NCBI GenBank assembly: GCA_964016885.1
Contig: OZ024762.1
Location: 8,184,001-8,248,000, forward strand
Origin: Eledone cirrhosa
Lineage: Eukaryota
DNA: 64,000 nt
Reading direction: 5' to 3'
In this document: positions 833 through 39,462 of the stretch, in pieces
How positions within the stretch are numbered: position 1 is the stretch's first letter
Layout of the letters: each line of letters starts with the position of its first letter
Notes under the pieces: model-generated
Database searches by the model: none
Told to the model about the DNA's origin: nothing
What the model saw: the letters and a program-made list of their open reading frames with translations, nothing else
Position numbers and translations under genes: made by a program

Positions 833-1268
833 CATCATCATCATCATCAACGTTTAACGTCCGTGTTCCACGCTTGCATGGGTTTGGACGGGGGTTTTCC
901 CACTTGAGGCAAGAGTGATTGTCTTGCTCGCATAGGACTGTCTGGCAGGTTTTCTACAGTTGGATGCCCTTCCTAACACCAACCACATTTACAGTGTGGG
1001 TCTGGGAGGTTTTTACCGTGTTGCCTACACGGCCACATTACAGCGTGGACTGTGTGTTTTTTTGTCGCGACACCTACACGATTCGAATATATATATATAT
1101 GTAAACGTGGTTGGTGTTAGGAAGGGCATCCAGCCGTAGAAAACCCGCCAGACAGTCCTATACGAGCAGGACAACCAATCTTGCCTCAAGTGGGAAAACT
1201 CCTGTCTAAACCCATGCAAGCGTGGAAGATGGACGTTAAACGATGATGATGATGATGATGATGATGAT
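833..1268. mobile_element. Two RTE-type 3'-tail fragments in inverted orientation (833-1085 minus, 1100-1268 plus)
   Basis: (CAT)n-aacgtcc-cgcttgcatgggttt...gcccttcctaacaccaacc on the left, mirrored on the right. Confidence 0.8.
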
Positions 1269-1364
1269 ATATATATATGTAAAAGGTAAACAGAAATAAC
1301 AACACAATCGGTACAGTATATGGACGGAATATATTAGGTTAATGCTTGAAATATCAGGAAGAGG

Positions 1365-1399
1365 GTCTTACATTTCGGATGCTAGTCCTTCATCAGAAG
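1365..1399 (-). ncRNA. HHR family A, partly decayed, in an element starting at about 1279
   Basis: cuu CUGAUGA aGGAC uagc AUCC GAAA UGUA aga; flanks homologous to 9595-9770. Confidence 0.55.
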
Positions 1400-2214
1400 A
1401 AAGAATGAGAAATAAGATAGATTAAAGGGAATGGCAGGGTGGAATTGGAAAAGACGGGTGAGAGGAAGGTGGTTTCAGGAGTGGAATGGGCTCCGCCAAG
1501 CTTAAAATGCTGAAGAAACGCTGAATATCAAAATGGCACCCTTAACACTCCATTAGAAGTTACGGGACCATACCACAAATTATGGTGGTGTGGGGGTGAT
1601 GGCGGTGGTGGGTAGTGATGGTGGTGGTGTAGTGATGGTGGCTTTGGGGGGAGTGATGGTGATGGTGGTGGAGGTGGTATTGTCGGAGGTGGTGGTGTGG
1701 AATAGTAATAGGGGTAGTGATGGTGGTGGGGTGGTGGTTGTGGTGATGGTGGAGGGGTGGTGGTAGTGGTGATGGTGGCAATGGTGATAGTGATAACGGT
1801 GGTAGAGGTGTGAGGGGTTAGTGATGGCGATGGTGGTAGTGACGTCACACCAGATGTAGTATTACACAGCTATCTAAGTGGTGCTTCTCCCCCCCCTCTC
1901 TATCGCCCTCAGTCATTCTACCGCCCGCCCCCCTCTCACCCTGTCATTCTCTCCCCCTCTCTCTCTCTCACCTCTCTCTCACCCTGTCATTCTCTCCCTT
2001 CCCCCTCTCTCACCCGCTCTCATTCTCTCCCTCTCTCACCCTCAGTCATTCTCTCCCTCTCTCTCTCACCCCCTCTCTCTCTGCCCCTCTCTCACTCTCT
2101 GTCATAATATTGATGCTGCTAATGTAGACACCCCCCACCACTTTATGGCAGATTAAGCCTCCTTTACTATTTTTAATAACTACTGCTGTTACAATATATT
2201 GATGGACACTTATA

Positions 2215-5444: not shown

Positions 5445-5934
5445 AAAACAACACTTACTCTGGAAAAAACTGGCTGTATTCACATCGGGAGAGTTGATGT
5501 GTTCTGCCACGATAAAACAAAACACTCAAGGTTAGCTATGGACAGTTTTGAATAAACATCATTGTGTTTAAGGTAAGTACATATGACCTTAATTGCTAAA
5601 AAGGTTAACTGACAATTGTTCATAATTCTTGACAATGCCCCTACAACTCTATCAGGAGTTACAGGTCCATACATATATATATATATATCCAGGGGGTGTA
5701 ACTTGGAGTTACTGCAGGTTCACCCGGGAGATCACTCGATGTTTAGGTTCACTTCTGTGATGAGGTGTAGAGCTATACAGAGTGTAATATATTATATATA
5801 TATATATATATGTAGGAGGTGAGTTTTATTGTAGTACAATAAAGCAATGCAGATATCGGATAAGAAGCATTCTATATGTTGATTTAAAACTGCACTATTC
5901 ACAAGTGTTCTTTAACCTTCATATCATGTCTTCC

Positions 5935-6005
5935 TATTTTATCTGATGAAAACACAAATGTTATTGCATGATAATATTTGTTTTTGAAATGCGCATAATA
6001 AAATA
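5935..6005 (+). ncRNA. HHR family B (long stem II, palindromic stem III AUGCGCAU)
   Basis: uauuuuau CUGAUGA aaacacaaauguuau-ugcaug-auaauauuuguuuuu GAAA UGCGCA UA auaaaaua: 8-bp stem I, AUA site. Confidence 0.75.
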
Positions 6006-6044
6006 CATGGAACTCTTTTAACCATCTTTTGATATTATATATTA

Positions 6045-6254
6045 TGTAATGTGGCCGTGTAGGCAACACGGTAAAAACCTCCCAGACCCACACTGTAAAT
6101 GTGGTTGGTGTTAGGAAGGGCATCCAACTGTAGAAAACCTGCCAGACAGTCCTATGCGAGCAAGACAATCACTCTTGCCTCAAGTGGGACTACCCCCGTC
6201 CAAACCCATGCAAGCATGGAACACGGACGTTAAACGTTGATGATGATGATGATG

Positions 6255-8249: not shown

Positions 8250-8880
8250 ATTAAATATCATTGTTCATGTGGGAGGACAAATGAACAACTAAGCATGGAT
8301 GAACTGACAGAAAAATGCTGGGTGTCAGAAGAATCAGATGTTATGTGCAAGAGAGGTGACTGCACTGGTATGGACATGTGATGTGTATGGATGATGATTT
8401 CTGAGTGAAGAAGTGCCAAGAGATCCCTGTGGAAGTAAGCTGCAGTAGAGGAAGACCAAGGAAGACATGGGCAGAGTTTGTGAGAGATGACTGCACTGGT
8501 ATGGATATGTAATGTGTATGGATGATGAGTTCTGAGTGAAGAAGTGCCAAGAGATCCCTGTGGAAGTAAGCTGCAGTAGAGGAAGACCGAGGAAGACATG
8601 GGTAGAGTTTGTGAGAGATGACTGCACTGGTATGGATATGTAATGTGTATGGATGATGAGTTCTGAGTGAAGAAGTGCCAAGAGATCCCTGTGGAAGTAA
8701 GCTGCAGTAGAGGAAGACCAAGGAAGACATGGGGAGAGTTTGTGAGAGATGACTGCACTGGTATGGATATGTGATGTGTATGGATGATGAGTTCTGAGTG
8801 AAGAAGTGCCAAGAGATTCCAGTGGAAGTAAGCTGCAGTAGAGGAAGACCAAGGAAGACATGGGGAGAGTTTGTGAGAGT
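8250..8880 (+). repeat. Decayed RTE fragment containing four tandem 131-bp copies of the RT C-terminal region
   Basis: gactgcactgg recurs at 8358, 8489, 8620 and 8751; the unit is homologous to roughly 4620-4750. Confidence 0.85.
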
Positions 8881-11168: not shown

Positions 11169-11789
11169 ATTATTATATTATTATATATATATATATTTTT
11201 TTTTTTAATTGATCAACAAGATCCCAGACCTCACTTACTGATTGGGGTGGAACTTGACAAATCGGACCAGGGAAACAATGTTTCCATTGACGATACTATC
11301 TATCGGTTACAATTCCTCCCTGTGTGTGTGTGTTGTTTGTTTATGTCCTGTAATTTAGCGGTTTGACAATCAGAGATCAATAAAATAAGTGCCAAACTTG
11401 AAAAAAAAAAATTATTACTGGGGTCGATATTATCGGCCAATTCCTTAATGACGGTGCCCCAGTATGGCCTCAATGTACAACAAGAATAATAGAATATATA
11501 TTATATAACACTCACACAACACACCTATGTGTGTGTGTGTGTGTGTACGATTGTTACCTTCAAACGTGAATATATATGCCTATAGCAGAGAGATGAGGGG
11601 TGGGTAGGAGAGAGAGAAGGGGGAGAGTTGAAAGAGGAAAGTGTATGAGAGAGAGAGAGAGGGGGAGTAAGAGAGGCAGACAGACACAACTTCCTTCTCC
11701 CACTACTACTATATTACTGACATCACTGCCACCCCCACCACCACCACCACCACCACGACAGTACAGACATTACCGCCGCCTCCACCACC

Positions 11790-14700
11790 ATCACCAACAG
11801 AGTAATGACATCACCCTGCCTCCACCACCATCACCAACAGAGTACTGACATCACCACCACCTCCACCACCATCACCAACAGAGTACTGACATCACCCCGC
11901 CCCCCACCATCATTACCAACACAGTACTGACATCACCGCACCTGTACCATCATTACCAACAGAGTACTGACATCACCTCCACCACCAGAGTACTGACATC
12001 ACCGCCGCCTCCACCATCATTACCAACAGAGTACTGACATCACCACCGCCTCCACCATCGTTACCAACAGAGTACTGACATCACCCCGCCTCCACCACCA
12101 GAGTACTGACATCACCGCCGCCTCCACCACCATCACCAACAGAGTACTGACATCACCCTACCTCCACCACCATCACCAACAGAGTACTGACATCACCGCA
12201 CCTCCACCATCATTACCAACAGAGTACTGACATCACCCCGCCTCCACCACCAGAGTACTGACATCACCGCCGCCTCCACCATCATTACCAACAGAGTACT
12301 GACATCACCCCACCTCCACCACCAGAGTACTGACATCACCGCCGCCTCCACCATCATTACCAACACAGTACTGACATCACCGCCGCCTCCACCATCATTA
12401 CCAACAGAGTACTGACATCACCACCGCCTCCACCATCATTACCAACAGAGTACTGACATCACCACCGCCTCCACCATCATTACCAACACAGTACTGACAT
12501 CACCGCCGCCTCCACCATCATTACCAACACAGTACTGACAACACCGCCACCTCCACCATCATTACCAACACAGTACTGACAACACCGCCACCTCCACCAT
12601 CATTACCAACACAGTACTGACATCACCGCCGCCTCCACCATCATTACCAACACAGTACTGACAACACCGCCACCTCCACCATCATTACCAACACAGTACT
12701 GACATCACCACCGCCTCCACCATCATTACCAACACAGTACTGACATCACCGCCGCCTCCACCATCATTACCAACACAGTACTGACAACACCGCCACCTCC
12801 ACCATCATTACCAACACAGTACTGACAACACCGCCACCTCCACCATCATTACCAACACAGTACTGACAACACCGCCACCTCCACCATCATTACCAACACA
12901 GTACTGACAACACCGCCACCTCCACCATCATTACCAACAGAGTACTGACAACACCGCCACCTCCACCATCATTACCAACACAGTACTGACAACACCGCCA
13001 CCTCCACCATCATTACCAACACAGTACTGACATCACCGCCGCCTCCACCATCATTACCAACACAGTACTGACAACACCGCCACCTCCACCATCATTACCA
13101 ACAGAGTACTGACAACACCTCCACCTCCACCATCATTACCAACAGAGTACTGACATCACCACCGCCTCCACCATCATTACCAACACAGTACTGACAACAC
13201 CGCCACCTCCACCATCATTACCAACAGAGTACTGACAACACCTCCACCTCCACCATCATTACCAACAGAGTACTGACAACACCTCCACCTCCACCATCAT
13301 TACCAACACAGTACTGACAACACCTCCACCTCCACCATCATTTCCAACACAGTACTGACAACACCGCCACCTCCACCATCATTACCAACAGAGTACTGAC
13401 AACACCTCTACCTCCACCATCATTACCAACACAGTACTGACAACACCGCCACCTCCACCATCATTACCAACACAGTACTGACATCACCGCCGCCTCCACC
13501 ATCATTACCAACACAGTACTGACAACACCGCCACCTCCACCATCATTACCAACAGAGTACTGACAACACCTCCACCTCCACCATCATTACCAACAGAGTA
13601 CTGACAACACCTCCACCTCCACCATCATTACCAACAGAGTACTGACATCACCTCCACCTCCACCATCATTACCAACAGAGTACTGACATCACCACCACCT
13701 CCACCATCATTACCAACACAGTACTGACAACACCTCCACCTCCACCATCATTACCAACACAGTACTGACAACACCGCCACCTCCACCATCATTACCAACA
13801 GAGTACTGACAACACCTCCACCTCCACCATCATTACCAACAGAGTACTGACAACACCTCCACCTCCACCATCATTACCAACAGAGTACTGACATCACCAC
13901 CGCCTCCACCATCATTACCAACACAGTACTGACATCACCACCACCTCCACCATCATTACCAACACAGTACTGACAACACCTCCACCTCCACCATCATTAC
14001 CAACACAGTACTGACATCACCGCCGCCTCCACCATCATTACCAACAGAGTACTGACATCACCACCGCCTCCACCATCATTACCAACACAGTACTGACATC
14101 ACCGCCGCCTCCACCATCATTACCAACACAGTACTGACAACACCGCCACCTCCACCATCATTACCAACACAGTACTGACAACACCGCCACCTCCACCATC
14201 ATTACCAACACAGTACTGACATCACCACCACCTCCACCATCATTACCAACACAGTACTGACAACACCTCCACCTCCACCATCATTACCAACACAGTACTG
14301 ACAACACCGCCACCTCCACCATCATTACCAACAGAGTACTGACAACACCTCCACCTCCACCATCATTACCAACACAGTACTGACAACACCGCCACCTCCA
14401 CCATCATTACCAACACAGTACTGACATCACCGCCGCCTCCACCATCATTACCAACACAGTACTGACAACACCGCCACCTCCACCATCATTACCAACAGAG
14501 TACTGACAACACCTCCACCTCCACCATCATTACCAACAGAGTACTGACAACACCTCCACCTCCACCATCATTACCAACAGAGTACTGACATCACCTCCAC
14601 CTCCACCATCATTACCAACAGAGTACTGACATCACCACCATCTCCACCATCATTACCAACACAGTACTGACAACACCTCCACCTCCACCATCATTACCAA

Positions 14701-17700
14701 CACAGTACTGACAACACCGCCACCTCCACCATCATTACCAACAGAGTACTGACAACACCTCCACCTCCACCATCATTACCAACAGAGTACTGACAACACC
14801 TCCACCTCCACCATCATTACCAACAGAGTACTGACATCACCTCCACCTCCACCATCATTACCAACAGAGTACTGACATCACCACCACCTCCACCATCATT
14901 ACCAACACAGTACTGACAACACCTCCACCTCCACCATCATTACCAACACAGTACTGACAACACCTCCACCTCCACCATCATTACCAACAGAGTACTGACA
15001 ACACCGCCACCTCCACCATCATTACCAACAGAGTACTGACAACACCGCCACCTCCACCATCATTACCAACAGAGTACTGACAACACCGCCACCTCCACCA
15101 TCATTACCAACAGTGTACTGACATCACCACCGCCTCCACCATCGTTACCAACAGAGTACTGACATCACCGCCGCCTCCACCATCATTACCAACAGAGTAC
15201 TGACATCACCACCGCCTCCACCATCATTACCAACAGAGTACTGACAACACCTCCACCTCCACCATCGTTTCCAACAGAGTACTGACATCACCACCGCCTC
15301 CACCATCATTACCAACACAGTACTGACAACACCACCGCCTCCACCATCAATACCAACAGAGTACTGACATCACCACCGCCTCCACCATCAATACCAACAG
15401 AGTACTGACATCACCGCCGCCTCCACCATCATTACCAACAGAGTACTGACAACACCCCAACTCCACCATCATTACCAACAGAGTACTGACATCACCACCG
15501 CCTCCACCATCATTACCAACAGAGTACTGACATCACCACCGCCTCCACCATCATTACCAACACAGTACTGACATCACCCCACCTCCACCATTATTACCAA
15601 CACAGTACTGACATCACTGCCACCTCCACCATCATTACCAACAGAGTACTGACAACACCACCGCTTCCACCATCATTACCAACAGAGTACTGACATCACC
15701 ACCGCCTCCACCATCATTACCAACAGAGTACTGACAACACCACCGCCTCCACCATCATTACCAACAGAGTACTGACATCACCCCACCTCCACCATCATTA
15801 CCAACACAGTACTGACATCACTGCCACCTCCACCATCATTACCAACAGAGTACTGACAACACCACCGCCTCCACCATCATTACCAACACAGTACTGACAT
15901 CACCCCACCTCCACCATCATTAGCAACACAGTACTGACATCACCCCACCTCCACCATCATTACCAACACAGTACTGACAACACCACCGCCTCCACCATCA
16001 TTACCAACACAGTACTGATATCACCACCGCCTCCACCATCATTACCAACACAGTACTGACATCACCTCCACCTCCACCATCATTACCAACAGAGTACTGA
16101 CAACACCACCGCCTCCACCATCATTACCAACACAGTACTGACAACACCACCGCCTCCACCATCATTACCAACACAGTACTGATATCACCACCACCTCCAC
16201 CATCATTACCAACACAGTACTGACATCACCTCCACCTCCACCATCATTACCAACACAGTACTCATATCACCACCACCTCCACCATCATTACCAACACAGT
16301 ACTGACAACACCACCACCTCCACCATCATTACCAACACAGTACTGATATCACCACCACCTCCACCATCATTACCAACACAGTACTGACATCACCTCCACC
16401 TCCACCATCATTACCAACACAGTACTGATATCACCACCACCTCCACCATCATTACCAACAGAGTACTGACAACACCACCGCCTCCACCATCATTACCAAC
16501 ACAGTACTGACATCACCACCACCTCCACCATCATTACCAACACAGTACTGATATCACCACCACCTCCACCATCATTACCAACACAGTACTGACAACACCA
16601 CCACCTCCACCATCATTACCAACACAGTACTGATATCACCACCACCTCCACCATCATTACCAACACAGTACTGACATCACCTCCACCTCCACCATCATTA
16701 CCAACACAGTACTGATATCACCACCACCTCCACCATCATTACCAACACAGTACTGACATCACCTCCACCTCCACCATCATTACCAACACAGTACTGATAT
16801 CACCACCACCTCCACCATCATTACCAACACAGTACTGACATCACCTCCACCTCCACCATCATTACCAACACAGTACTGATATCACCACCACCTCCACCAT
16901 CATTACCAACAGAGTACTGACAACACCACCGCCTCCACCATCATTACCAACACAGTACTGACATCACCACCACCTCCACCATCATTACCAACACAGTACT
17001 GATATCACCACCACCTCCACCATCATTACCAACACAGTACTGACAACACCACCACCTCCACCATCATTACCAACACAGTACTGATATCACCACCACCTCC
17101 ACCATCATTACCAACACAGTACTGACATCACCTCCACCTCCACCATCATTACCAACACAGTACTGATATCACCACCACCTCCACCATCATTACCAACAGA
17201 GTACTGACAACACCACCGCCTCCACCATCATTACCAACACAGTACTGACATCACCACCACCTCCACCATCATTACCAACACAGTACTGATATCACCACCA
17301 CCTCCACCATCATTACCAACACAGTACTGACATCACCTCCACCTCCACCATCATTACCAACACAGTACTGATATCACCCCACCTCCACCATCATTACCAA
17401 CACAGTACTGACAACACCTCCACCTCCACCACCATTACCAACACAGTACTGACAACACCTCCACCTCCACCATCATTACCAACAGAGTACTGACAACACC
17501 ACCACCTCCACCATCATTACCAACACAGTACTGACAACACCACCGCCTCCACCATCATTACCAACAGAGTACTGACATCACCACCGCCTCCACCATCATT
17601 ACAAACACAGTACTGACATCACCACCGCCTCCACCATCATTACCAACACAGTACTGACATCACCCCACCTCCACCATCATTACCAACACAGTACTGACAT

Positions 17701-20700
17701 CACCCCACCTCCACCATCATTACCAACACAGTACTGACATCAACACCGCCTCCACCATTATTACCAACAGAGTACTGACATCACCCCACCTCCACCATCG
17801 TTACCAACACAGTACTGACATCACCGCTGCCTCCACCATCATTACCAACAGAGTACTGACAACACCCCACCTCCACCATCATTACCAACACAGTACTGAC
17901 ATCACCGCTGCCTCCACCATCATTACCAACAGAGTACTGACATCACCACCGCCTCCACCATCATTACCAACAGAGTACTGACAACACCTCCACCTCCACC
18001 ATCATTACCAACAGAGTACTGACAACACCGCCACCTCCACCATCATTACCAACAGAGTACTGACAACACCCCACCTCCACCATCATTACCAACAGAGTAC
18101 TGACAACACCGCCACCTCCACCATCATTACCAACAGAGTACTGACATCACCACCGCCTCCACCATCATTACCAACAGAGTACTGACAACACCTCCACCTC
18201 CACCATCATTACCAACAGAGTACTGGCATCACCGCCGCCTCCACCATCATTACCAACAGAGTACTGACATCACCCCACCTCCACCATCATTACCAACAGA
18301 GTACTGACATCACCACCGCCTCCACCATCATTACCAACAGAGTACTGACATCACCCCACCTCCACCATCATTACCAACACAGTACTGACAACACCACCGC
18401 CTCCACCATCATTACCAACACAGTACTGATATCACCACCGCCTCCACCATCATTACCAACACAGTACTGACAACACCACCGCCTCCACCATCAATACCAA
18501 CAGAGTACTGACATCACCCCACCTCCACCATCATTACCAACATAGTACTGACAACACCACCGCCTCCACCATCGTTACCAACAGAGTACTGACATCACCG
18601 CCGCCTCCACCATCATTACCAACAGAGTACTGACATCACCACCGCCTCCACCATCATTACCAACAGAGTACTGACATCACCACCGCCTCCACCATCATTA
18701 CCAACAGAGTACTGACAACACCTCCACCTCCACCATCGTTACCAACAGAGTACTGACATCACCACCGCCTCCACCATCATTACCAACACAGTACTGACAA
18801 CACCACCACCTCCACCATCAATACCAACAGAGTACTGACAACACCACCACCTCCACCATCATTATCAACAGAGTACTGACAACACCCCACCTCCACCATC
18901 GTTACCAACAGAGTACTGACATCACCCCACCTCCACCATCATTACCAACAGAGTACTGACATCACCACCGCCTCCACCATCATTACCAACACAGTACTGA
19001 CATCACCCCACCTCCACCATCATTACCAACACAGTACAGACAACACCACCGCCTCCACCATCATTACCAACAGAGTACTGACAACACCACCGCCTCCACC
19101 ATCATTACCAACAGAGTACTGACATCACCCCCGCCTCCACCATCATTACCAACAGAGTACTGACATCACCACCGCCTCCACCATCATTACAAACAGAGTA
19201 CTGACATCACCACCGCCTCCACCATCATTACCAACACAGTACTGACAACACCACCGCCTCCACCATCATTACCAACACAGTACTGACAACACCTCCACCT
19301 CCACCATCATTACCAACACAGTACTGACAACACCTCCACCTCCACCATCATTACCAACACAGTACTGACAACACCTCCACCTCCACCATCATTACCAACA
19401 GAGTACTGACAACACCGCCACCTCCACCATCATTACCAACAGAGTACTGACAACACCGCCACCTCCACCATCATTACCAACAGAGTACTGACAACACCTC
19501 CACCTCCACCATCATTACCAACACAGTACTGACATCACCTCCACCTCCACCATCATTACCAACAGAGTACTGACAACACCTCCACCTCCACCATCATTAC
19601 CAACAGAGTACTGACAACACCTCCACCTCCACCATCATTACCAACACAGTACTGACATCACCTCCACCTCCACCATCATTACCAACACAGTACTGACATC
19701 ACCACCGCCTCCACCATCATTACCAACAGAGTACTGACAACACCACCGCCTCCACCATCATTACCAACACAGTACTGATATCACCACCGCCTCCACCATC
19801 ATTACCAACAGAGTACTGACAACACCTCCACCTCCACCATCATTACCAACACAGTACTGACATCACCTCCACCTCCACCATCATTACCAAGACAGTACTG
19901 ACAACACCTCCACCTCCACCATCATTACCAACACAGTACTGACATCACCTCCACCTCCACCATCATTACCAACAGAGTACTGACAACACCTCCACCTCCA
20001 CCATCGTTACCAACAGAGTACTGACATCACCACCGCCTCCACCATCGTTACCAACACAGTACTGACAACACCTCCACCTCCACCATCAATACCAACAGAG
20101 TACTGACATCACCACCGCCTCCACCATCGTTACCAACACAGTACTGACAACACCTCCACCTCCACCATCAATACCAACAGAGTACTGACATCACCACCGC
20201 CTCCACCATCGTTACCAACACAGTACTGACAACACCTCCACCTCCACCATCATTACCAACACAGTACTGACATCACCTCCACCATCATTACCAACAGAGT
20301 ACTGACAACACCTCCACCTCCACCATCATTACCAACAGAGTACTGACATCACCACCGCCTCCACCATCATTACCAACACAGTACTGACAACACCACCGCC
20401 TCCACCATCAATACCAACAGAGTACTGACATCACCACCGCCTCCACCATCATTACCAACAGAGTACTGACAACACCTCCACCTCCACCATCATTACCAAC
20501 ACAGTACTGACATCACCTCCACCTCCACCATCATTACCAACACAGTACTGACATCACCACCGCCTCCACCATCATTACCAACACAGTACTGACATCACCA
20601 CCGCCTCCACCATCATTACCAACAGAGTACTGACAACACCACCGCCTCCACCATCATTACCAACACAGTACTGACATCACCTCCACCTCCACCATCATTA

Positions 20701-21092
20701 CCAACACAGTACTGACATCACCACCGCCTCCACCATCATTACCAACACAGTACTGACATCACCACCGCCTCCACCATCATTACCAACACAGTACTGACAT
20801 CACCACCGCCTCCACCATCATTACCAACAGAGTACTGACATCACCGCCGCCTCCACCATCATTACCAACAGAGTACTGACATCACCACCGCCTCCACCAT
20901 CATTACCAACACAGTACTGACATCACCACCGCCTCCACCATCATTACCAACGGAGTACTGACATCACCCCACCTCCACCATCATTACCAACAGAGTACTG
21001 ACATCACCACCGCCTCCACCATCATTACCAACACAGTACTGACATCACCACCGCCTCCACCATCATTACCAACACAGTACTGATATCACCCA
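11790..21092. repeat. 41-bp tandem satellite, about 225 copies
   Basis: Consensus cagtactgacatcaccaccgcctccaccatcattaccaaca (units at 12571 and 12612); a few 40-bp and deleted units; no spacers. Confidence 0.97.
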
Positions 21093-26244: not shown

Positions 26245-26282
<38 letters not shown>

Positions 26283-26312
26283 AGATCAAAAGATGGTTAA
26301 AGGAGTTCCATG

Positions 26313-26382
26313 TATTTTATTATGCGCATTTCAAAAACAAACATCGTCATGCAATAATATTTGTGTTTTCATCAGATAAAAC
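26313..26382 (-). ncRNA. HHR family B, in an element (26275-26440) inserted into a TA tract
   Basis: Reverse complement of the 5935-6005 motif. Confidence 0.7.
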
Positions 26383-26562
26383 AGGAGGACATGATATGAA
26401 GGCTAAAAAACACTTGTGGATAGTGCAGTTTTAAATCTACATATATATATATATATATCCCTGTATCAACATATATATATATATCCCTGTATCTCTCCCG
26501 TCTTCACTCCAGGCAGTAGAGCTCTAGTTCTTTCAGTCTCTCCCAGTGGTTCATCTCCTTCA

Positions 26563-27536: not shown

Positions 27537-27567
<31 letters not shown>

Positions 27568-27691
27568 GCAAAAGTTCTATTTAAATTGTAGGGATACAAC
27601 AAGCAAATATTTTTATCCGGGAGCTTCCAACAGTAATGGTTGCATTTTTTAAGGGTATGTCAATATTTATTTATAAAACTGATCTATATTA

Positions 27692-27756
27692 TATTTTGTC
27701 TGATGAAAGCACACCATAATTTAACTTGGTGTCCTTGAAATATGTATAATGAAATA
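27692..27756 (+). ncRNA. HHR family C
   Basis: uauuuugu CUGAUGA aag-c-acacca..uggugu-c-cuu GAAA UAUGUA UA augaaaua. Confidence 0.7.
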
Positions 27757-27894
27757 AATATGGTTTTATAAATATAGTTTCCATTTGTTAATATCATATA
27801 TATATATACGGGGTAACAAATTATTGTTATAGGTAGTCCACTTAAGTGTAGTCCAGTTATGGTACTCCGGGTAGTGTATATATATATATATATA

Positions 27895-28486
27895 CATAAT
27901 ATATAAGATCAAAAGATGGTTAAAAGAGTTCCATGTATTTTATTATGCGCATTTCAAAAACAAATATCATCATGCAATAATATTTGTGTTTTCATCAGAT
28001 AAAATAGGAAGACATTATATGAAGGTTAAAAACACTTGTGAATAGTGCAGTTTTAAAATCAACATATGTTGATTTAAAACTGCACTATTCACAAGTGTTT
28101 TTTAACCTTCATATCATGTCTTCCTATTTTATCTGATGAAAACACAAATATTATTGCATGATGATATTTGTTTTTGAAATGCGCATAATATGTTGATTTA
28201 AAACTGCACTATTCACAAGTGTTTTTTAACCTTCATATCATGTCTTCCTATTTTATCTGATGAAAACACAAATATTATTGCATGATGATATTTGTTTTTG
28301 AAATGCGCATAATATGTTGATTTAAAACTGCACTATTCACAAGTGTTTTTTAACCTTCATATCATGTCTTCCTATTTTATCTGATGAAAACACAAATATT
28401 ATTGCATGATGATATTTGTTTTTGAAATGCGCATAATAAAATACATGGAACTCTTTTAACCATCTTTTGATCTTATATATTATGTA
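27895..28486. mobile_element. Family B HHR element: one inverted copy followed by three direct 124-bp units, each with an HHR core
   Basis: tcatcag at 27992; CTGATGA at 28133, 28257 and 28381; palindrome centre aacat|atgtt at about 28065. Confidence 0.8.
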
Positions 28487-28565
28487 TACTCCAGTCCTAC
28501 AAACTGTAGAGTGCTTTTATCCGATATCTGCATTGCTTTATTGTACTACAATAAAACTCACCTCC

Positions 28566-28623
<58 letters not shown>

Positions 28624-28759
28624 AATATATGAGATTATATATCATCATTGTTTAACATTATCTGTTCCATGCTAGCATGGGTTGGCCAGGTCTTTTCAAG
28701 CTCTGTCTCTCCACTCATTGTGGCCATCATATGTATATATATATATATATATATATAAA

Positions 28760-29008
28760 TATATTAACAAATGGAAACTATATTTATAAAACCATATTTA
28801 TTTCATTATACATATTTCAAGGACACCAAAGCAAATTATGTGCGCTTTCATCAGATAAAATATAAGGGTATGTCAATATTTGTTTATAAAACTGATCTAT
28901 ATTATATTTTATCTGATGAAAGCACACCATAATTTGCTTTGGTGTCCTTGAAATATGTATAATGAAATAAATATGGTTTTATAAATATAGTTTCCATTTG
29001 TTAATATA
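28760..29008. mobile_element. Family C HHR element as an inverted repeat (HHR minus 28799-28862, plus 28905-28969)
   Basis: Arms of about 105 bp around a spacer of about 35 bp; each arm carries CUGAUGA...GAAA. Confidence 0.75.
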
Positions 29009-29484
29009 TTGTATTTTTACTCCAAAAATTTGTTGAGTGCTTTATATCAGTTATAAAAATATTTGCTTGTTGTATCCCAACAAATTAAATATAACTTCTA
29101 CATATATATATATTTCAAGCATATGTGGTTTTTCAACCCTTGTAATTTTAGACACACGGTTTACTGTGTTTCTTACTATATATTGTTAATCGGCTCAGTA
29201 TTTATTTGTACTTTATACTTAGAGCTTAATGGTTACAGGGTTCTAATTCATATATATATATATATATTGTTATACTTTGGGAGGGTCATGTTGCCAATAT
29301 TCAGAAACGAAATATATATATATATATAGAAACGAGTAGGACCCCAACGGCTGAGCTCAAGCCGTTTCGACGGCTAATTCTGGACTAAAATTGCTACTCG
29401 TTCCTATTACCCACTCTACTACCCTAAGTATTGAGTACTTTGGTACGTTATGGTCCATCTGGTTCCTTACCACATTTCCTTCGT

Positions 29485-37844: not shown

Positions 37845-39462
37845 GAACAAAATATATCCAGCCCACACTGTAAGGTGGTCGTGTAGGTGACACGACAAAA
37901 AGCATCCAGCCCACACTGTAAAGTGGTCATTTTGGTGTGATGACAAAAAGCACCCAGCACACACTGTAAAGTGGTCATTTTGGTGTCATGACAAAAAGCA
38001 CCCAGCACACACTGTAAGGTGGTCGTGTAGGTGACACGACAAAATGCATCCAGCCCACACTGTAAAGTGGTCATTTTGGTGTGATGACAAAAAGCACCCA
38101 GCACACACTGTAAAGTGGTCATTTTGGTGTGATGACAAAAAGCACCCAGCACACACTGTAAAGTGGTCATTTTGGTTTCATGACAAAAAGCACCCAGCAT
38201 ACACTGTAAAGTGGTCATTTTGGTGTCATGACGAAAAGCACCCAGCACACACTGTAAAGTAGTCATTTTGGTGTGATGACAAAAAGCACCCAGCACACAC
38301 TGTAAAGTGGTCATTTTGGTGTCATGACAAAAAGCACCCAGCACACACTGTAAAGTGGTCATTTTGGTGTCATGACAAAAAGCACCCAGCACACACTGTA
38401 AAGTGGTCATTTTGGTGTGATGACAAAAAGCACCCAGCACACACTGTAAAGTGGTCATTTTGGTGTCATGACAAAAAGCACCCAGCACACACTGTAAAGT
38501 GGTCATTTTGGTGTGATGACAAAAAGCACCCAGCACACACTGTAAAGTGGTCATTTTGGTGTGATGACAAAAAGCACCCAGCACACACTGTAAAGTGGTC
38601 ATTTTGGTGTCATGACAAAAAGCACCCAGCACACACTGTAAAGTGGTCATTTTGGTGTCATGACAAAAAGCACCCAGCACACACTGTAAAGTAGTCATTT
38701 TGGTGTCATGACAAAAAGCACCCAGCACACACTGTAAAGTGGTCATTTTGGTGTGATGACAAAAAGCACCCAGCACACACTGTAAAGTGGTCATTTTGGT
38801 GTCATGACGAAAAGCACCCAGCACACACTGTAAAGTGGTCATTTTGGTGTGATGACAAAAAGCACCCAGCACACACTGTAAAGTGGTCATTTTGGTGTGA
38901 TGACAAAAAGCACCCAGCACACACTGTAAAGTGGTCATTTTGGTGTCATGACAAAAAGCACCCAGCACACACTGTAAGGTGGTCATTTTGGTGTGATGAC
39001 AAAAAGCACCCAGCACACACTGTAAAGTGGTCATTTTGGTGTGATGACAAAAAGCACCCAGCACACACTGTAAGGTGGTCATTTTGGTGTCATGACAAAA
39101 AGCACCCAACACACACTGTAAGGTGGTCATTTTGGTGTCATGACAAAAAGCACCCAGCACACACTGTAAGGTGGTCATTTTGGTGTGATGACAAAAAGCA
39201 CCCAGCACACACTGTAAAGTGGTCATTTTGGTGCCATGACAAAAAACACCCAGCACACACAGTAAAGTGGTCATTTTGGTGTCATGACAAAAAACACCCA
39301 GCATACACTGTAAAGTGGTCATTTTGGTGTCATGACAAAAAGCACCCAGCACACACTGTAAGGTGGTCATTTTGGTGTCATGACAAAAAACACCCAGCAT
39401 ACACTGTAAAGTGGTCATTTTGGTGTCATGACAAAAAGCACCCAGCACACACTGTAAAGTGG
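37845..39462. repeat. 48-bp minisatellite, about 33 copies, derived from SINE/RTE tail sequence
   Basis: tgacaaaaagcacccagcacacactgtaaagtggtcattttggtgtca; compare 32697-32723 and 43992-44020. Confidence 0.92.

Follow-up and report, generated by a model that had tools for sequence, protein, structure and literature searches.

Structure of the locus

In the window, that is, the whole stretch of 64,000 nucleotides of Eledone cirrhosa DNA that was analysed, an insert of 680 bp (approximately 27891-28569) without any ORF is embedded in (TA)n and carries a tail on one side only. Its centre is a tandem array (28064-28438, period 124, 3.0 copies, 100% matches in TRF) of three direct units of 124 nt (28064-28435), which are mutually identical and are abutted by an inverted copy. 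As the sequence-only reading of this DNA had noticed, CTGATGA recurs at steps of 124 nt, at 28133, 28257 and 28381 on the plus strand, with a further occurrence at 27998 on the minus strand. The palindrome, for which arms of about 120 bp or more had been given, pairs 27891-28067 with 28312-28488 over 177 nt at 98% identity. The extent initially assigned, 27895..28486, holds for the array, while the full insert is longer, the tail reaching approximately 28569 with (TA)n on both sides. Between the inverted arm and the direct units, one substitution and two one-base indels were found in the 119-nt part compared. Given that a copy on a different contig (L073, among the 81 copies compared) matches the unit without any difference over 119 nt, the insertion is considered to be young. 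No remnant of the parent ORF was detected in the 64-kb window by tblastn. The features are given below, with positions in the 3' end repeat (pLTR) of the parent numbered from the predicted hammerhead cut (after 28187, 28311 and 28435).

27877..27894, no strand: (TA)n target repeat on the left, read from the sequence; its final bases overlap the end of the inverted arm, and family copies also terminate in (TA)n
27891..28067, minus strand: pLTR copy in inverted orientation, truncated at its 5' end and without tail, spanning -124 to +51 of the parent (counted from the predicted cut)
27936..28006, minus strand: complete type I hammerhead motif of the inverted copy, with 8-bp stem I, core at 27998 and predicted cut between 27944 and 27943
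28064..28187, plus strand: unit 1, which begins at the 5' hot spot of the family (-124) and extends up to the predicted cut, with its core at 28133 and a stem I of just 3 bp
28188..28311, plus strand: unit 2, identical to unit 1; core at 28257; the ATA with which it opens (28188-28190) is compatible with both sides of the junction
28312..28486, plus strand: unit 3 and the remaining pLTR (-124 to +51); over 28312-28570, the identity with the 3' end of L036, a copy that has the ORF, is 95%
28373..28443, plus strand: the only complete plus-strand type I hammerhead of the array, by sequence motif, with 8-bp stem I, CUGAUGA at 28381, long A-U-closed stem II, GAAA, palindromic AUGCGCAU and predicted cut after 28435
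28487..28569, plus strand: one-sided tail, to +134, which in ORF-linked copies continues into the 5' end of the ORF region (182 exact tail-to-ORF joints)
28569..28612, no strand: (TA)22 target repeat on the right (TRF)

Hammerhead motif

The type I hammerhead anatomy first proposed agrees with the predicted pairing, which comprises the core, a long stem II closed by A-U, the palindromic AUGCGCAU, an AUA cut triplet and an open end at stem I. The CUGANGA, GAAA and NUH core, together with the three helices, is present in unit 3, in the inverted arm and in two other copies of the window. No hammerhead match was obtained in the window with Rfam at the gathering score, and the ribozyme call therefore rests on the core motif and the pairing. 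As in the type I hammerheads of pLTRs, helix III is short and palindromic, so that it would need a dimer, and helix II is long. Unlike in them, helix II (about 15 bp) is closed by A-U at its base instead of by the conserved G10.1-C11.1 pair, which is absent, stem I has 8 bp, and the score stays below the Rfam gathering value.

The palindromic character of stem III was borne out, AUGCGCAU being self-complementary with a predicted -10.5 kcal/mol as a dimer, and so was the claim that unit 3 alone has the full stem I. In this unit 8 of 8 pairs are formed, while units 1 and 2 pair just the first 3 in a row; the energy of the stem I duplex is -2.4 kcal/mol in the former vs +1.9 kcal/mol in the latter, whose own stem I pairing has a probability of about 0 in the predicted fold of the trimer. 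With a strict motif filter (stem I of 5 bp or more), a single unit out of three was retained, and two or more successive units that bear a complete type I hammerhead were not found; a minimal descriptor without stem I might still call units 1 and 2.

The parent element

The unit had been described as a retrozyme-like multimer, a description which missed its parent, given that the unit belongs to the pLTR of an autonomous Penelope-like element (PLE). In the 3.0-Gb genome, a 34-nt core has 10,424 exact copies, many of them arranged as minus/plus pairs 0.1-5 kb apart, and several of the 20 paired stretches retrieved contain a long ORF. In L036, an ORF of 821 aa is followed by about 1 kb of 3' sequence which ends in the pLTR and the tail. 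The protein carries the motifs SDKT, LRW, YRDD, CxCX5C, CxxC and CxH, the corresponding strings including SDKTNNLY (shared with Hydra-1_Obim), CNCRIKNKC, ICNLCLNEK and ICLH, as well as the reverse transcriptase (RT) and nuclease motifs FDI..Y, MG..DS and YRDD and a C-terminal YFGST..F..R..HH. The position of RWK reads LRWT in L036 and LRWI in L039/L040, and the reference Hydra-1_Crog departs as well (RWR). By eye, the L036 protein follows the Hydra proteins of the PMC8557442 supplement motif by motif. The DKT, CxCX5C, CxxC and CxH motifs, the (TA)n targets and the hammerhead are hallmarks of Hydra-clade PLEs (PMC8557442), and PLE insertions have been described as inverted 5'-truncated copies and partial tandems with a tail on one end only (PMC8557442, PMC3846280).

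With Pfam, neither RT nor GIY-YIG was found in three copies of the ORF, the one match being spurious (E 0.09), and a sequence search of the PDB with the ORF gave chance matches only. The Atlas contains close unnamed protein clusters, in some of which part of the members carry GIY-YIG or RVT_1; these are taken as leads only. An in-frame stretch rich in Asn, Ser and Pro was observed between the RT thumb and the nuclease linker (L036:4400-4660), and may be compared with the N-rich inserts of rotifer PLEs (PMC3846280). A reading as a MITE, based on the TGTAG..CTACA ends, was dropped once the ORF-bearing parent had been found.

As judged from these motifs and relatives, the insert corresponds to a stub derived from the pLTR of a Hydra-clade Penelope-like element, in the usual inverted-plus-tandem form, and is of a known kind, the clade being assigned by motifs. 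It shares with the Hydra-clade PLEs of PMC8557442 (e.g. Hydra-1_Obim, Hydra-1_Ajap) the single ORF with RT followed by a C-terminal nuclease of GIY-YIG type, the DKT, CxCX5C, CxxC and CxH motifs, the hammerhead near the 3' end, the (TA)n targets, the inverted and partial-tandem copies and the one-sided tail. The differences are that the protein differs from that of Hydra-1_Obim and the PMC8557442 supplement does not contain the 12-nt stem III motif; that RWK reads RWT/RWI; that the length from ORF start to tail end is about 3.7 kb, vs mostly under 3 kb in the described elements; that the tail is about 85 bp long, vs 30-40 bp; and that this family has at least 10,000 copies. The family was not found in the supplement of Craig et al. 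2021 (PMC8557442), and no published report of it was found in a search that covered mainly open-access papers.

Other repeats in the window

Two more members of the family are present in the window, namely a stub at 5810-6048, where a 65-nt piece of tail, in inverted orientation, adjoins a direct pLTR whose start is at -124, and a solo pLTR on the minus strand at 26268-26444, between (TA)n runs. A second hammerhead-bearing family, similar in its layout, forms an inverted pair (27567-27806 and 28758-29113) with its own one-sided extension ending in (TA)n; its stem I has 8 bp with changed letters, its stem III is the near-palindromic AUAUGUAU, and it is probably another Hydra-type pLTR. Further CTGATGA...GAAAC motifs occur at 1396(-), 9714(-), 49257(+), 48883(-)/48905(+) and 56903(-). 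These belong to two or three other repeat families, one of which is present as an inverted pair, fail the strict stem I filter and are likely to be pLTR hammerheads of other PLE families. Moreover, TRF detected large minisatellites at 11730-21090 (41 bp x 230, 93%), 37858-39462 (48 bp x 33, 95%) and 8351-8879 (131 bp x 4, 97%), and tandem amplification at the DNA level is common in this region.

The preferred 5' end at -124

Among the terminal copies of the family which reach -118, 38 of 78 end within -128..-118, vs none of the 19 ORF-linked upstream pLTRs that extend so far. The Fisher p of 3e-5 (91 terminal and 30 ORF-linked copies measured) is too small, the arms of palindromes having been counted twice. 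Inside the window, ends at -124 are located at 28064, 5874 and 26444. The possibility that -124 represents the start of the full-length RNA was not borne out, none of the 30 ORF-linked upstream pLTRs ending there. Cutting in trans by a hammerhead at the UUC before -124 was also discarded, neither stem III nor stem I being able to form (by eye).

Since the palindrome centres vary between loci and some of them hold short re-copied pieces (e.g. L055), -124 is reached anew each time and is a place of stalling and re-starting. The palindrome centre at L055:3165-3200 contains several short stretches re-copied from the element's 5' end, a sign of repeated slips at -124. The sequence at this site, TTCA-TATG, resembles the initiator consensus. 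In Drosophila, the Penelope transcript starts inside its pLTR (PMC2377424). On these two grounds, a short pLTR RNA starting at -124 would be the likely template of the terminal copies.

Junctions between units

The junction between units had been placed 2-3 nt after the AUA cleavage site. Its closeness to the cut stands, while a fixed distance of 2-3 nt does not, given that ATA fits both sides and the junction may lie anywhere from the predicted cut to +3. In the parent, C and not A precedes ATATGTTG, and ATAAAA lies directly after the cut. The unit junction fits an exact join at the predicted cut or plain ATA microhomology.

The exact junction was found nowhere else in the 3.0-Gb genome, the 2 matches both lying in this array. 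When a gap of 0-12 nt was allowed, 3 matches were obtained, the third being L003, joined at +11. When the search was widened to any stretch between a core and the -124 motif that follows it, 21 matches were obtained, 2 in this array and 19 in 17 other places, at most of which (TA)n or inverted filler lies between the copies. All these searches used exact anchors, by which sequence variants are missed. Direct head-to-tail joints onto -124 amount to six, at this locus, L003 (+11), L057 (-38), L060 (-40), L063 (-33) and L064 (+47), and one of the six fits the cut. The check that had been proposed, namely a junction shared by other multimers, consequently went against the initial claim. As regards microhomology, 2 of the 13 site groups between -40 and +49 fit the cut, and the rough chance of at least one fitting joint in six is 0.63.

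Two of these loci resemble the present one in their build. L003 combines an inverted copy with a 132-nt dimer joined at +11 through CAT, the same inverted-plus-tandem arrangement. L064 (approximately 1100-1770, minus strand; G000:C15, near 27.747 Mb) consists of an inverted pLTR with tail, a 71-nt partial copy and four head-to-tail units of 167 nt, which run from -122 to +47, all have a complete 8-bp stem I and are of a different subfamily from its inverted arm and partial copy. By these motifs, L064 appears to be a better candidate for a nascent retrozyme than this locus.

Copy ends at the predicted cut

The 3' ends which run into (TA)n no more than 11 nt from the cut were counted by hand at 33 loci (65 matches). 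Three lie at the cut, 13 (plus 2 unclear) at +3, 11 at +5..+8 and 4 at +9..+11. The sites at +3 and +8 present the same ATA and are used alike, and the 0 phase, expected of a cut end annealing to TA, is the rarest. Nevertheless, 16-18 of the 33 TA-joined 3' ends sit at the two positions that fit the cut, which counts against the reading of an uncut template.

The 5' ends between -3 and +7 are flat, with 9 of 22 loci fitting the cut vs 4 of 10 positions expected. This survey started from 318 matches, from which 30 loci were retrieved and 8 dropped as small indels (5 by script, 3 by eye); a hand count over the first 100 of the 318 matches gave 30 of 77 fitting the cut. Departures after the anchors numbered 84 at the cut vs 45 and 140 at controls, and were mostly small indels and subfamily variants. 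True ends, determined by eye in 30 loci each, were 7 at the cut and about 11 at a control, for which the pattern did not admit ends into TATATA. Between -22 and +30, ends into TA looked scattered, most of them near +20 (first 100 of 234 matches). All the end surveys used exact anchors, and their figures come from the matches listed. A copy which starts exactly at +1, crosses the tail and includes 342 nt on the ORF side was observed at L159 (approximately 1380-1850), one of the 30 ORF-linked copies.

In short, copy ends form no peak at the cut, though cut templates may have a small share. This agrees with the study of an anole PLE in vitro, where uncut RNA gives rise to the insertions and insertion stays normal in mutants of the hammerhead (Frangieh et al. 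2024, PMC11167929). Copying of that element begins at two internal sites, by which the tail is defined, and none of its RNA reads has an end at the cut (PMC11167929). The origin first suggested for the array, as cDNA from a self-cleaved or circularised RNA, is not supported, since the exact junction is unique, other joints are used elsewhere and copy ends are not enriched at the cut.

Origin of the array

The reading preferred here, to which a probability of about 0.72 is given, is that of a young, ORF-less pLTR insertion of a Hydra-clade PLE in (TA)n, whose triple unit arose by template re-starts at the shared ATA and not by ribozyme cutting. Repeated template jumps and a cDNA origin, both offered as options by the sequence-only reading, are in line with it. 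From the observed parentage, (TA)n target, one-sided tail, inverted arm, -124 end and scattered junctions, the following enzymatic steps may be inferred. The RT and GIY-YIG nuclease of the element would nick (TA)n and use an uncut pLTR RNA as template, copying it from the tail (+134) as far as -124. The end of the cDNA, which is AT-rich, would then re-anneal on the ATA just after the hammerhead core, and the same 124 nt would be copied again. The third unit would result from a second re-start or from a later duplication at the DNA level, and the inverted arm would be a second cDNA started at a short 3' end (+46 to +51). The hammerhead itself would be a passenger inherited from the pLTR. Two facts count against re-starts. 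The unit extends exactly from the -124 end to the predicted cut, the same unusual junction occurring twice, and the four-unit array of L064 repeats at the normal 3' end (+47), with no odd site.

The match of the unit, to the base, with the stretch from -124 to the cut, and the repetition of the junction, also speak for a different course of the same PLE insertion, one considered rather unlikely, in which the RT jumped twice onto a hammerhead-cut 124-nt leader (-124 to cut), or circled it. Unit 3, the first to be copied, keeps the uncut downstream sequence, as expected of an uncut first template, L064 shows that one insert can combine RNAs of different subfamilies, and circular templates have been proposed for PLE tandems (PMC4209133). 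Nevertheless, ATA microhomology explains the same letters, one fitting joint in six is the level of chance, and no excess of copy ends exists at the cut. Moreover, RtcB-type joining requires a 5'-OH, which a leader beginning at a transcription start would lack. In the anole element, in addition, no RNA ends at the cut were seen (PMC11167929). Taken to its full extent, this course would mean that the pLTR is transcribed from -124, that the hammerhead frees a 124-nt leader in the germ line and that the RT jumped onto or circled the cut end twice; the locus would then be a footprint of cleavage in vivo and a retrozyme being born from a pLTR, with the L064 tetramer as the next step, a scenario which is held to be equally doubtful.

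Less probable still is that the insertion is real and the number of direct units, three instead of one or two, an assembly error beside a perfect hairpin. The units are 100% identical, while the arm differs from them at 3 places, and no contig bridging the junction is among those listed. The contigs and RAD-seq reads at the array are dominated by other copies of the family, the contigs being mostly 31-mers and possibly from another individual, and a few 32-nt pieces at 28184-28216 have just 3-4 letters left of the junction. Against such an error, identical copies are normal in this family, 8 of the inverted pairs listed from elsewhere showing 0 differences and the unit having its exact match in the L073 copy, and comparable arrays exist at L003 and L064.

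Animal retrozymes consist of tandem units, each with a complete type I hammerhead, which are expressed as circles (Cervera and de la Pena 2020, PMC7229834), and they have recently been tied to pLTRs (Li et al. 2026, bioRxiv 10.64898/2026.07.22.740005). Like the metazoan non-LTR retrozymes, the array has short tandem units which are low in GC, lack an ORF and contain a type I hammerhead core, and it has a pLTR origin, the 124-bp unit being below the 150-450 bp of PMC7229834 and inside the 51-972 bp of bioRxiv 10.64898/2026.07.22.740005. Unlike them, two of its three ribozymes lack a full stem I, an inverted arm and a tail are present, and it is a single locus, known here from DNA alone, with no dispersed family sharing its junction. 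The locus resembles a retrozyme and departs from the definition on two points, the complete consecutive hammerheads and the dispersed multimer family. The supplements of the preprint (bioRxiv 10.64898/2026.07.22.740005) span 35 species and could include a like array.

That the locus is a working non-LTR retrozyme, in which neighbouring cores pair via AUGCGCAU and excise 124-nt monomers that circularise and spread, has very little probability, in spite of the three tandem cores with a palindromic stem III (-10.5 kcal/mol), the proposed derivation of animal retrozymes from pLTRs (bioRxiv 10.64898/2026.07.22.740005) and the helix I of 2 bp only in a Drosophila PLE hammerhead (PMC4209133), since the release of monomers needs a cut in units 1 or 2, where stem I has 3 bp, a 124-nt circle would contain no complete ribozyme, the junction is absent from any second locus, so that the unit has not spread, and a transcript through the inverted arm would make a 177-bp duplex with one unit. 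The release of 124-nt monomers by adjacent cores, which had been suggested, is accordingly unlikely.

Implications

As it stands, the locus is what a retrotransposon of a known kind ordinarily produces, and its value is that of a test bed. The role of the hammerhead in Penelope-like elements has been stated to be unclear (PMC8557442), and no published genome-wide count of PLE ends at the hammerhead cut was found in the literature covered, mainly open-access papers. A young family with at least 10,000 copies makes possible a count of the start and stop sites of cDNA on a genome scale. In the count of ends made here, terminal copies have a strong fixed 5' end at -124, which is found in none of the ORF-linked ones, and there is no sign of ribozyme-cut templates. 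Should a cut RNA be the source of the junction, the latter would provide direct evidence, of a rare kind, for cleavage inside the cell and for the way in which retrozymes originate from pLTRs.
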